Source: Deltaproteobacteria bacterium
GTDB taxonomy: Bacteria > Myxococcota_A > Polyangia > HGW-17
Assembly (NCBI GenBank): GCA_027858615.1
Contig: JAQICJ010000286.1
Location: 1,926-65,925, forward strand
Length of the DNA: 64,000 nt
Direction of reading: 5' to 3'
The position numbers were made by a program, and so were the translations under genes. The notes beneath the pieces are model-generated. The model saw only the letters and a program-made list of their open reading frames with translations, was not told the origin of the DNA and did not search any database. Positions 25,232-57,522 of this stretch are shown here, piece by piece; position 1 is the first letter of the stretch; each line of letters begins with the position of its first letter.

Positions 25232-25324
25232 AACATCGGGGTTTTGCGGTTATTTGCCAAACCGCACCTAATATTGATGTTTGCAATATTCCTGAGTTAT
25301 ATTATATTCAGGTCTGTTGTATCT

Positions 25325-25401
25325 GGCTCTGTGGCCCAATTGGTAGAGGCGCTCGACTCAAAATCGAGAGGTTCTGGGTTCGACTCCCAGCAGAGCCACC
25401 A
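25325..25401 (+). tRNA. class-I tRNA with anticodon CAA (reads UUG); identity uncertain; encodes CCA
   Basis: Acceptor GGCTCTG/CAGAGCC, U8, D-loop with G18G19 and A21. Anticodon arm CTCGA-CTCAAAA-TCGAG, 5-nt variable loop AGGTT, T-arm CTGGG-TTCGACT-CCCAG, A73, CCA. Confidence 0.65.
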
Positions 25402-25409
25402 CATCTTTT

Positions 25410-25495
25410 GCCCGGATGGCGGAATAGGTAGACGCAGCGGACTTAAAATCCGCCGGGATTCATCTCCTGTACCGGTTCGATTCCGGTTCTGGGCA
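25410..25495 (+). tRNA. tRNA-Leu(UAA), class II with long variable arm
   Basis: GCCCGGA acceptor, GGTAGACGCA D region typical of Leu, anticodon arm GCGGA-CTTAAAA-TCCGC, long variable arm, T-arm CCGG-TTCGATT-CCGG. Confidence 0.9.
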
Positions 25496-25497
25496 CA

Positions 25498-26292
25498 ATG
25501 AAACTACAAAAACCCCCTGCACTTCTTCTTGATCTTGATGGAACTCTCTATGTTGGTTCTCGTATGCTGGATTCAACAGCCGAGTTTCTGGAATTTTTGA
25601 GAACTCAAAAAATTCCCCATCTTTTTCTGACCAATAATTCTTCACGCAGTGCCAGAGAATATTATGAAAAATTAAGAAACAAGGGTATTGTTCTTGAAGA
25701 ATCCCAAGTTCTTACCAGTGGTGATGCCACAATTTCCTATCTGCAGAAACATACGGATTACCAAAAAATCTATCTTATGGGTACTCCTTCTCTGGAGGAT
25801 GATTTTCAAAGAGCCGGGTTTAAACTCACAGCAGATGATCCCCAGTGTCTGGTTCTTGGTTATGATACCCAGATTACCTATCAAAAACTTGAGACAGCTT
25901 CTCGTTTTCTATATGCTGGTTTGCCATATATGGCAACTCATCCAGATCTAACCTGCATTACAGAAACTGGTCTTATTCCTGATACTGGTTTTTTCATAGC
26001 AGGATTCAGATTGATGACAGGCAGAACCCCGTTGATTCTGGGAAAACCATCCTCAAATATGCTTGAAGCTGCTTTGGAACGAATGCAGATAGAGTTTTCT
26101 TCCAAAATTCTCATGGTTGGAGATCAACTTGATACTGATATCAAATTGGGGGTGGACAATGGAATTACTTCAGCTCTGATGCTTTCAGGGGAAACCTCAC
26201 TAGCTCAGGTGGAAGAATATCCCCTCTCTCCCCATTTTATCCATGAACATAATGGCAAATTATTGGAAGATCTACAGAAGTTATATTCCTGA
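25498..26292 (+). CDS. HAD superfamily hydrolase, subfamily IIA (NagD/CECR5-like sugar-phosphatase family)
   Basis: LLLDLDGTLY nucleophile motif, LTNNSS, GDQLDTDI. Starts 3 nt after tRNA-Leu. Confidence 0.8.
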   Translation: MKLQKPPALLLDLDGTLYVGSRMLDSTAEFLEFLRTQKIPHLFLTNNSSRSAREYYEKLRNKGIVLEESQVLTSGDATISYLQKHTDYQKIYLMGTPSLEDDFQRAGFKLTADDPQCLVLGYDTQITYQKLETASRFLYAGLPYMATHPDLTCITETGLIPDTGFFIAGFRLMTGRTPLILGKPSSNMLEAALERMQIEFSSKILMVGDQLDTDIKLGVDNGITSALMLSGETSLAQVEEYPLSPHFIHEHNGKLLEDLQKLYS

Positions 26293-26572: not shown

Positions 26573-27862
26573 ATGAACAAAATTCTACTTGTAGCTGACG
26601 ACAGTAAGACAATAAAAAAAGCATTTGAGTTGAGTTTCACTGGCAAGGATATCGATCTAATTTTTGCAAATGATGGTCAATCGGCTCTGATGAAAGCAAA
26701 AAAACAAAAACCGGGAGTTGTCATTGCCGATCATAAATTACCGGGGTTGAATGGTTATGATCTTCTTTCAGAAATGAAAAGAGAAGCAGGGCTGGGTAAA
26801 ATTCCCTTCATAATAATGCACAGTCATTACCAGGAATTTGACGAAGTAAAAGGAGTCGGGGCTGAAGATCACATTGCCAAACCATTTTTGACCAAAGAGA
26901 TCCATGAAGTTGTGGACAAGGCTTTTGAAGTGGTGCAATCAGGAGTTTCAGAAGAAGTAGAGCAGGAAATTATCATAGATGCAGAATTTCCTGACGAAGA
27001 AGAAGCCCCTGATGAACTTGAACTTCAATTTGAAAATCTTGGTTTGAAAAAGAAATCAAATGGTATGTCTTCGGCATCCAAGCCAGCCCGTCCGGTAGTA
27101 CCTCGCTCGTCCAAGCCAGCAGCTCCGCAAAGGCCAGCCCGTCCGGCAGTACCTCGCTCGTCCAAGCCAGCAGCTCCGCAAAGGCCAGCCCGTCCGGCAG
27201 TACCTCGTTCGTCCAAGCCAGCGGTTCCACAAAAGCCAGCCCGTCCGGCAGTACCTCGTTCGTCCAAGCCAGTGGTTCCACAAAAGCCAGCTCGTCCTTC
27301 GGTACCTCGCTCGTCCAAGCCAGCAGCTCCGCAAAGGCCAGCCCGTCCGGCAGTACCAGGAGCAAACAAAGAAGAAAAGGCTCAATCCACTTTTGCACCG
27401 CCACCTTCCCGTCCTGTCAAACCAGAAGCTCCCAAGGCCACGAAACCGGGTGTTCCGGAGAAACAAAAACAGGAAAAATCAGGCAAGCCTTTTGTTTCTT
27501 CTGACAAATTTAAAAAATCAAGCAAAACTGCTACTGCAGGAACAAAAAAATCCGGTGGCGGACAGACAGTATTCATGTCCTCTTTTGCTCCAACTCCAGC
27601 TCAGGAGACTCCAACTTCCGAAAAAAGTTCCCAAACTGCAGAAAATGAACAGATTAAAGAAAAAGTCGTTCAGGATACCCAAAAGCAAGTCAAAGGAATT
27701 GTCGATAAGAAAGTCAGGGAAATATCGGCTCAAGGTGAAGAATTCAAAGCAATAGCCAATTTGAGCAGAGACATCATCGAAAAAATAGCTTGGGAAGTAG
27801 TACCCCAGTTAGCCGAGGTAATTATAAAAGAAATTGCAGTTAAGGACAAGCATCTCAAATAA
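26573..27862 (+). CDS. response regulator with N-terminal receiver domain, proline-rich repeat linker and conserved helical C-terminal domain (RomR-like architecture)
   Basis: Receiver domain (LLVADDSKTIKK...IADHKLPGLNGYDLL...KPF). About 5.7 tandem copies of a 17-aa P/A/R-rich unit, and an acidic/helical C-terminus. Confidence 0.7.
   Translation: MNKILLVADDSKTIKKAFELSFTGKDIDLIFANDGQSALMKAKKQKPGVVIADHKLPGLNGYDLLSEMKREAGLGKIPFIIMHSHYQEFDEVKGVGAEDHIAKPFLTKEIHEVVDKAFEVVQSGVSEEVEQEIIIDAEFPDEEEAPDELELQFENLGLKKKSNGMSSASKPARPVVPRSSKPAAPQRPARPAVPRSSKPAAPQRPARPAVPRSSKPAVPQKPARPAVPRSSKPVVPQKPARPSVPRSSKPAAPQRPARPAVPGANKEEKAQSTFAPPPSRPVKPEAPKATKPGVPEKQKQEKSGKPFVSSDKFKKSSKTATAGTKKSGGGQTVFMSSFAPTPAQETPTSEKSSQTAENEQIKEKVVQDTQKQVKGIVDKKVREISAQGEEFKAIANLSRDIIEKIAWEVVPQLAEVIIKEIAVKDKHLK
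27076..27366 (+). repeat. 51-bp tandem repeat (about 5.7 copies; unit CCAGCCCGTCCGGCAGTACCTCGCTCGTCCAAGCCAGCAGCTCCGCAAAGG) inside the response-regulator gene
   Basis: Near-identical units read directly. They encode PARPAVPRSSKPAAPQR repeats. Confidence 0.9.
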
Positions 27863-57342: not shown

Positions 57343-57416
57343 AGGGCCTATAGCTCAGTTGGTCAGAGCCACCGGCTCATAACCGGTCGGTCCCTGGTTC
57401 GAGTCCAGGTAGGCCC
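57343..57416 (+). tRNA. tRNA with anticodon CAT (elongator tRNA-Met or tRNA-Ile2/lysidine type); CCA not encoded
   Basis: GGGCCTA/TAGGCCC acceptor, D-arm GCTC-AGTTGGTCA-GAGC, anticodon arm ACCGG-CTCATAA-CCGGT, T-arm CCTGG-TTCGAGT-CCAGG, A73. Paired 1:72 and no GGG/CCC anticodon stem, so not an initiator. Confidence 0.85.
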
Positions 57417-57522
57417 ACCCTTACTGTATGGAAAATACTATATTTTCAATTACTTCAATAAAAGCAAATTCATATCCAATATTATTTCTCAAAAAATTCA
57501 CTCAGGGGTTCGGAGGTAGACA

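Follow-up and report, generated by a model that had tools for sequence, protein, structure and literature searches.

A type-I tRNA-Leu(CAA) gene conserved beside a class-II tRNA-Leu(UAA) gene in a lineage labelled Deltaproteobacteria and Myxococcota

The closest described counterpart of the tRNA gene analysed here is found in Streptomyces coelicolor, where one type-I tRNA-Leu(CAA) exists alongside four type-II tRNA-Leu (Fan et al. 2019, Nucleic Acids Res, PMC6614811). The single S. coelicolor LeuRS charges both types, with kcat/Km values of 6.25 (CAA) and 14.2 (UAA) per s per µM, and the authors did not succeed in knocking out the CAA gene (PMC6614811). The leucine-specific domain of this enzyme (ScoLeuRS) confers the charging of the type-I tRNA, which is also charged by human mitochondrial LeuRS and cannot be charged by the LeuRS of E. 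coli or S. purpurogeneiscleroticus (PMC6614811). As the latter two enzymes fail, whether an armless tRNA-Leu is accepted depends on the enzyme and is not to be assumed. In this sole biochemical study, bacterial type-I tRNA-Leu is presented as rare and tied to the special LeuRS domain in Streptomyces (PMC6614811), and Streptomyces goes unmentioned in the tRNA identity review PMC9976931. Two further systems show partial likeness to the gene described below. Animal mitochondrial type-I tRNA-Leu shares the short variable loop and A73 and is charged by a LeuRS of the bacterial type, but is organellar and often degenerate, whereas the elbow and T-loop of the tRNA described here are fully canonical. 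The Streptomyces tRNA-ProX/ProRSx mistranslation system, in which a dedicated synthetase paralogue is combined with a tRNA body of another isotype, is similar only superficially, through a tRNA body that seems to be at odds with its anticodon; here both the body and the anticodon are of the leucine type, and there is no adjacent synthetase gene.

We analysed a stretch of 64,000 nucleotides (the window) labelled Deltaproteobacteria, which has a GC content of 39% and a flat GC profile, and in which ARAGORN finds three tRNA genes. One of these, at 25325..25401 on the forward strand, is called as a tRNA-Leu(caa) of 77 nt, and Rfam model RF00005 matches 25325-25398 with 66.3 bits (E = 3.3e-12, gathering score 29) and is covered from position 1 to 71 of its 71 positions. 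Read directly, the gene gives GGCUCUG-UG-GCCC-AAUUGGUAG-AGGC-G-CUCGA-CUCAAAA-UCGAG for the 5' half and AGGUU-CUGGG-UUCGACU-CCCAG-CAGAGCC-A-CCA for the 3' half, i.e. a cloverleaf with a 7-bp acceptor stem, G18G19, a 5-bp anticodon stem, a canonical T-arm, A73 and an encoded CCA. The 7-nt anticodon loop (CUCAAAA) has U33, A37 and the anticodon CAA, and a 5-nt variable loop (AGGUU) stands where a long arm is expected. Every element of the cloverleaf listed in the original prediction was found by direct reading, with ARAGORN and Rfam in agreement, and its anticodon and loop boundaries were the same when read directly and when called by ARAGORN. The minimum-energy fold of the single sequence misses the D-arm (z = -2.0), which is usual for tRNAs and uninformative. 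The assignment of this gene as a class-I (type-I) tRNA-Leu with anticodon CAA draws on ARAGORN, Rfam, covariation and the syntenic copies in eight loci of relatives (L121-L128).

Located 8 nt downstream is a class-II tRNA-Leu with anticodon UAA and a long variable arm (25410..25496, forward strand), called by ARAGORN as an 87-nt tRNA-Leu(taa) and matched by Rfam with 58.3 bits and a long insertion at the variable arm, as the original prediction had proposed for the adjacent gene. The third tRNA of the window is a tRNA-Met(cat) at 57344-57419; ARAGORN finds no second CAA tRNA within the 64 kb, and a LeuRS gene is absent from the window. The likeness to S. coelicolor tRNA-Leu(CAA) extends to the anticodon, the 5-nt variable loop, U8-A14, G18G19 and A73, and in both organisms the type-I gene coexists with type-II tRNA-Leu, including UAA, and UUG is commonly used. 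The differences are that S. coelicolor belongs to the Actinobacteria, whereas the window is labelled Deltaproteobacteria, has two neighbours labelled Myxococcota and has a GC content of 39%; that Streptomyces-type sequences have A.C at pair 31-39, whereas the window tRNA has a normal A31-U39 pair and a fully paired anticodon stem; and that the class-I gene stands alone in the Streptomyces loci, whereas it is in tandem with tRNA-Leu(UAA) in the window. The Streptomyces tRNA is only 64% identical to that of the window, and an independent origin is possible; its leucylation has been demonstrated, whereas that of the window tRNA would follow by analogy.

A consensus scan places a weak, putative promoter (TTGCAA-16 nt-TATATT) at 25281..25308 on the forward strand, ending 16 nt upstream of the 5' end of the class-I tRNA, and this is a possible promoter for a transcript carrying both tRNAs; promoter-like sites in the region number five vs 4.3 in shuffled sequences, i.e. 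there is no excess. In the relatives a conserved TGCATAA motif is found upstream of the tRNA, at a distance similar to that of the promoter-like site in the window. The CAA and UAA genes probably share one transcript, in which case both UUR decoders would be supplied from one locus.

Two observations concern the genes that follow. The ATG of the HAD-IIA hydrolase gene is at 25498, 2 nt past the 3' end of tRNA-Leu(UAA), and most of the relatives resemble the window at this junction (25496-25500; GGGCAC-aATG in the relatives, inspected in L122-L128); the HAD mRNA would be practically leaderless unless it is co-transcribed with the tRNA precursor and cut from it. The response-regulator ORF further downstream (26573-27862, forward strand, 429 aa) contains central proline-rich near-repeats of roughly PARPAVPRSSKPAAPQR in about six copies, and its complete counterparts in the relatives range from 437 to 561 aa.

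Bacterial LeuRS leaves the anticodon unread and relies on the acceptor end and tertiary core of the tRNA, according to the elements defined for E. coli (PMC6614811), and the leucine elements independent of the long arm comprise U8-A14, A15-U48, G18G19 with U55C56, U54-A58 and A73 (PMC6614811). The class-I tRNA of the window carries U8, A14, A15, U48, G18G19, U54, U55, C56, A58 and A73. Its D-arm has the layout of tRNA-Leu, with a D-stem of three Watson-Crick pairs (G10-C25, C11-G24 and C12-G23), a C13.A22 mismatch and the extra D-loop base 20a, and D-arm length and register are the same in the class-I tRNA and its class-II neighbour (UGGCCCAAUUGGUAGAGGCG vs UGGCGGAAUAGGUAGACGCA).

The D-loop and anticodon loop had been likened in the original prediction to those of tRNA-Trp or tRNA-Phe, and one of the options given was a mistranslating tRNA, derived from either of these by a single anticodon change and inserting Phe or Trp at UUG. 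CUCAAAA is indeed one base away from both the typical Phe loop (CUGAAAA) and the typical Trp loop (CUCCAAA), and A73 and U20 fit E. coli tRNA-Phe, but we consider the likeness of the anticodon loop to be a one-base coincidence, as the D-arm, with its 3-bp stem and base 20a, is of the Leu type. The identity determinants also speak against a Trp or Phe origin. Bacterial tRNA-Trp is determined by G73 and the CCA anticodon (C34, C35), whereas the window tRNA has A73 and A35 and so lacks both G73 and C35. For tRNA-Phe, G34 is critical, being the strongest determinant in T. thermophilus, with U20 and U59 also contributing in E. coli; the window tRNA matches at A35, A36, A73 and U20 but has C34 and C59 as mismatches. 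When compared with about 700 tRNAs from the genome loci among the matches listed, the nearest relatives of the window tRNA are class-I tRNA-Leu (identity 0.76-0.80), including one Leu(tag) that was not selected by the search pattern, and the best Trp and Phe tRNAs reach 0.69 and 0.66 respectively, although identity to the window's own tRNA-Met is 68% and pairwise identity, at 64-81% overall, is a weak discriminator of isotypes. As pairwise identity separates isotypes poorly, our isotype call rests on architecture, identity elements and codon evidence rather than on resemblance to the Streptomyces tRNA.

In the long ORFs of the window, TTG accounts for 353 of 17,650 codons (20.0 per 1000), with TTA at 9.6 per 1000. 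Window genes were compared with orthologues from six distinct relatives, and the 211 TTG positions aligned in this way correspond to leucine codons in 51% of cases (CTG 52, CTC 22, CTT 17 and TTG 10), to Val in 12%, Met in 11% and Ile in 7%; the sixth class is at 3%, and the six commonest classes include neither Phe nor Trp. By the same measure TTA, CTT, CTG and CTC align with Leu in 56-67% of cases, TTT with Phe in 54% and TGG with Trp in 70%. The 16 TTG codons of UvrB, compared with two solved structures from other bacteria, correspond to Leu in 21 of 32 comparisons, with one position being Phe in both structures and none being Trp, a pattern like that of other leucine codons, while the seven TTG codons of the HAD gene alone, a small sample, gave fractions of 0.30 for both Leu and Ala against 97 homologues. 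On this codon evidence UUG is leucine in this organism. TTG thus aligns with leucine codons and residues without enrichment of Phe or Trp, and at 20 TTG per 1000 codons a systematic mis-insertion would be very costly; together with the missing G34, G73 and C35, this makes the option of a mistranslating tRNA very improbable. What remains of the proposed non-canonical UUG decoder is an intact class-I tRNA which would read UUG and has an odd shape for a bacterial tRNA-Leu; its non-canonical character does not hold, with a Leu-type D-arm and UUG as ordinary leucine. The codon analysis addresses the meaning of UUG and not the tRNA which delivers the leucine, because tRNA-Leu(UAA) with a modified U34 could read UUG as well.

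In our homologue search the HAD hydrolase of the window has a 100% identical counterpart in a MAG labelled Deltaproteobacteria bacterium, and homologues that are 52-63% identical, two of the nearest (52-62%) being labelled Myxococcota bacterium, lead to the eight syntenic loci L121-L128. Two of these are duplicates, leaving six further distinct sequences, and more distant HAD homologues (L129-L131), where synteny is lost, were left out. The order RNase Y, YmdB, ZapA, class-I tRNA-Leu(caa), class-II tRNA-Leu(taa) and HAD hydrolase is found in 8/8 loci, with an extra gene between ZapA and the tRNAs in three of them, and a response regulator and an inositol monophosphatase come after the HAD gene in the loci where the contig reaches that far. 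No integrase or phage gene is present among the Pfam labels of the neighbouring genes in the relatives. Scanning metagenomes for the specific D-arm pattern of the window tRNA added 22 contigs with a GC content of 53-68% (vs 39% in the window), several of them with a class-II Leu(taa) partner, which follows the class-I gene in L256, L265, L269 and L273. The fetched loci span a GC range that is very wide for a single syntenic group, from 39% in the window to 65-68% in several of L125-L128, L263 and L273.

Across the syntenic loci the class-I tRNA is almost invariant, while its intergenic flanks cannot be aligned by eye. The changes that do occur in its stems are largely compensatory, with G-C to A-U at pair 7-66 in L121, C-G to A-U at pair 49-65 in L122 and U-A to C-G at pair 6-67 in several metagenome contigs, and the sole stem mismatch in the close set, i.e. 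the sequences with the anticodon stem and T-arm of the window tRNA, is a G.G at 7-66 in L261. An alignment of 15 distinct sequences of this clade has 99.7% of its cells paired and changes on both sides in 14 of 20 pairs, which was reached in 0/500 shuffles; the pattern used for the metagenome search accounts for part of the D-stem invariance in this alignment. The CUCAAAA loop is likewise invariant in 15/15 sequences, being fixed by the search pattern for the metagenome-derived rows, and is identical in L121-L128, which were found by synteny and not by pattern.

The original prediction had also allowed for a recent pseudogene. The missing long arm could pass for a deletion in a bacterial tRNA-Leu, which would make the gene a non-functional tRNA relic, but its helices and conserved tertiary bases are intact, in line with the Rfam score of 66 bits. 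The near-invariance and the compensatory stem changes across relatives whose loci range from 39% GC (the window) to 65% (L265, from the same contig as L127), at 52-63% identity of the flanking protein and with wholly diverged intergenic DNA, exclude a pseudogene for practical purposes; with 99.7% of cells paired and the gene present at 8/8 syntenic loci, we regard this as the least probable of the readings considered.

The conserved neighbours, RNase Y, YmdB, ZapA and the HAD hydrolase, include neither a transferase nor a second synthetase, which bears on another reading, namely that the gene makes a conserved tRNA-like RNA serving mostly outside translation, either in regulation (an option in the original prediction) or as the donor used by a tRNA-dependent transferase. 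In that case UUG would be left to the adjacent UAA isoacceptor, which could read it if suitably modified, or to a class-II tRNA-Leu(CAA) encoded outside the window. Such a role is compatible with a view limited to 64 kb of the genome and with the existence of LeuRS enzymes that do not charge type-I tRNA-Leu, but it does not account well for the strict conservation of CUCAAAA in all members of the clade, as for a decoder, or for UUG being twice as frequent as UUA, and the Streptomyces precedent is translational, its gene having resisted knock-out (PMC6614811). With no partner gene conserved alongside and the loop strictly kept, the regulatory option found no support, and we consider a non-translational role improbable, although less so than mistranslation.

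We therefore favour a functional type-I tRNA-Leu(CAA), most likely the cognate decoder of UUG and leucylated by the ordinary LeuRS, and hold this reading with high confidence. The gene has an intact cloverleaf, it is under purifying selection with compensatory changes in a conserved chromosomal synteny, and UUG behaves as Leu. LeuRS would recognise the acceptor end and the tertiary core of the class-I tRNA, with the long arm replaced by the 5-nt loop, and leucylation by the housekeeping LeuRS of the organism, which we infer from the Streptomyces case, would lead to UUG being read as Leu, presumably with the class-I tRNA as the only CAA isoacceptor in the genome. We file the gene under bacterial type-I tRNA-Leu(CAA), and make no claim of common descent with the Streptomyces gene.

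The distribution of class-I tRNA-Leu was assessed with a scan of one genome per species, using a degenerate class-I pattern with a YTCAAAA loop, which gave at least 120 loci; all counts are lower bounds, and they are also biased by the pattern, which calls for a GGTA D-loop and a GGTTCRANTCC T-arm. ARAGORN calls a tRNA-Leu(caa) shorter than 80 nt in about 100 of 120 loci among the matches listed. Most of these listed genes are single genes in Actinobacteria, namely in Streptomyces (complete chromosomes among them), many Bifidobacterium species, Nanopelagicales, Actinomadura and Thermobifida. Others belong to large tRNA arrays of Acidobacteriota, cyanobacteria, a Myxococcota MAG and further sources; in the bacterial arrays among the matches listed, the Leu isoacceptors are mostly or entirely class I. 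The remaining matches listed are mostly Mycoplasma-type tRNA-Trp(UCA) genes matched out of register, and were rejected. The same pattern applied to viral contigs gave at least 113 class-I Leu(CAA), mostly in phage tRNA clusters (median of 12 tRNAs per locus among the matches listed). The original prediction took bacterial tRNA-Leu to be class II in every case, a premise contradicted by S. coelicolor (PMC6614811) and by class-I Leu(CAA) in at least about 100 genome loci and at least 113 viral contigs.

An alignment of 33 diverse class-I CAA tRNAs has 97.7% of its cells paired and changes on both sides in 18 of 20 pairs, a level reached in 0/500 shuffles, and slid controls for this alignment, which uses a cloverleaf with the Leu-type 3-bp D-stem, fall far below the observed values. 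U8, A14, G18 and G19 are invariant in these 33 tRNAs, and A15 and U48 nearly so. Pair 31-39 is a separate matter: it is non-Watson-Crick in many actinobacterial class-I Leu(CAA), with C.U in Bifidobacterium and A.C in Streptomyces (L009, L016 and others), and is unpaired in 11/33 of the class-I CAA tRNAs, which gives effectively a 9-nt loop.

The class-I Leu genes of phage clusters and bacterial arrays resemble the window tRNA in their short arm, and some of them also in the D-arm (GCCCAAUNGGYAGAGGC) and in a variable loop of AGGUU or AUGUU, with a best identity to the window tRNA of 0.77-0.81 among the matches listed. They differ in being clustered, with up to 34 tRNAs in the genome arrays among the matches listed, whereas the window gene is single; the viral loci contain both class-I and class-II Leu, whereas the window has one class-I gene beside one class-II gene in a conserved housekeeping neighbourhood. 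Among the matches listed, the AGGUU variable loop and the D-arm of the window tRNA are closer to class-I Leu of arrays and phages than to that of Streptomyces. A literature search on class-I tRNA-Leu in phages or tRNA arrays returned nothing specific.

The arrays contain further unusual tRNAs. Long-arm tRNAs of 90-96 nt with anticodon UAU, called as Ile, are present in arrays of Acidobacteriota MAGs (L001 1444-1533, L029 2528-2729 and L043 4214-4413) and in one viral contig (L145), and as all Leu tRNAs are short-armed there, the usual classes are reversed. Bacterial tRNA-Tyr is normally class II, whereas four metagenome arrays of roughly 14-28 tRNAs (L252, L259, L264 and L272) contain a 72-nt tRNA-Tyr(gta) of class-I size, and these arrays also hold class-I Leu(gag), Leu(cag) and Leu(caa). 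A Saccharibacteria MAG (L047) and a Paceibacterota MAG (L053) carry Trp-like class-I tRNAs with anticodon UCA, labelled SeC(tca) by ARAGORN; to our knowledge these lineages are not generally listed as UGA-recoded, and the tRNAs could be suppressors, signs of recoding or the result of mis-binned contigs.

Taken as a whole, we tentatively propose, at somewhat less than even confidence, that short-arm tRNA-Leu is widespread and largely unremarked, as single genes across the Actinobacteria and in the lineage of the window and as full class-I Leu sets in phage clusters and arrays, and that the CAA gene of the window could have been captured from a mobile cluster of this kind and then taken the place of an ancestral class-II gene. 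The capture scenario is suggested by the resemblance of the AGGUU variable loop and the D-arm to class-I Leu of arrays and phages. If this proposal is correct, the LeuRS of several phyla must accept an armless tRNA-Leu, which conflicts with the published view of Streptomyces LeuRS as the sole prokaryotic enzyme doing so.

Type-I tRNA-Leu has not been described before in this lineage, i.e. the Deltaproteobacteria of the window label and the Myxococcota of its neighbours. For the window, the suspected anomaly of genetic code or mistranslation is removed, with UUG as ordinary leucine and a tRNA that is merely odd in shape, and the interest of the finding lies in distribution and evolution rather than in a new mechanism. 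Class-I Leu tRNAs should not be treated as errors, either by annotation heuristics or by human readers. The locus adds a conserved chromosomal example outside the Actinobacteria, next to hundreds more in Actinobacteria, tRNA arrays and phages, and this suggests that the tolerance of LeuRS for armless tRNA-Leu is broader than has been stated.
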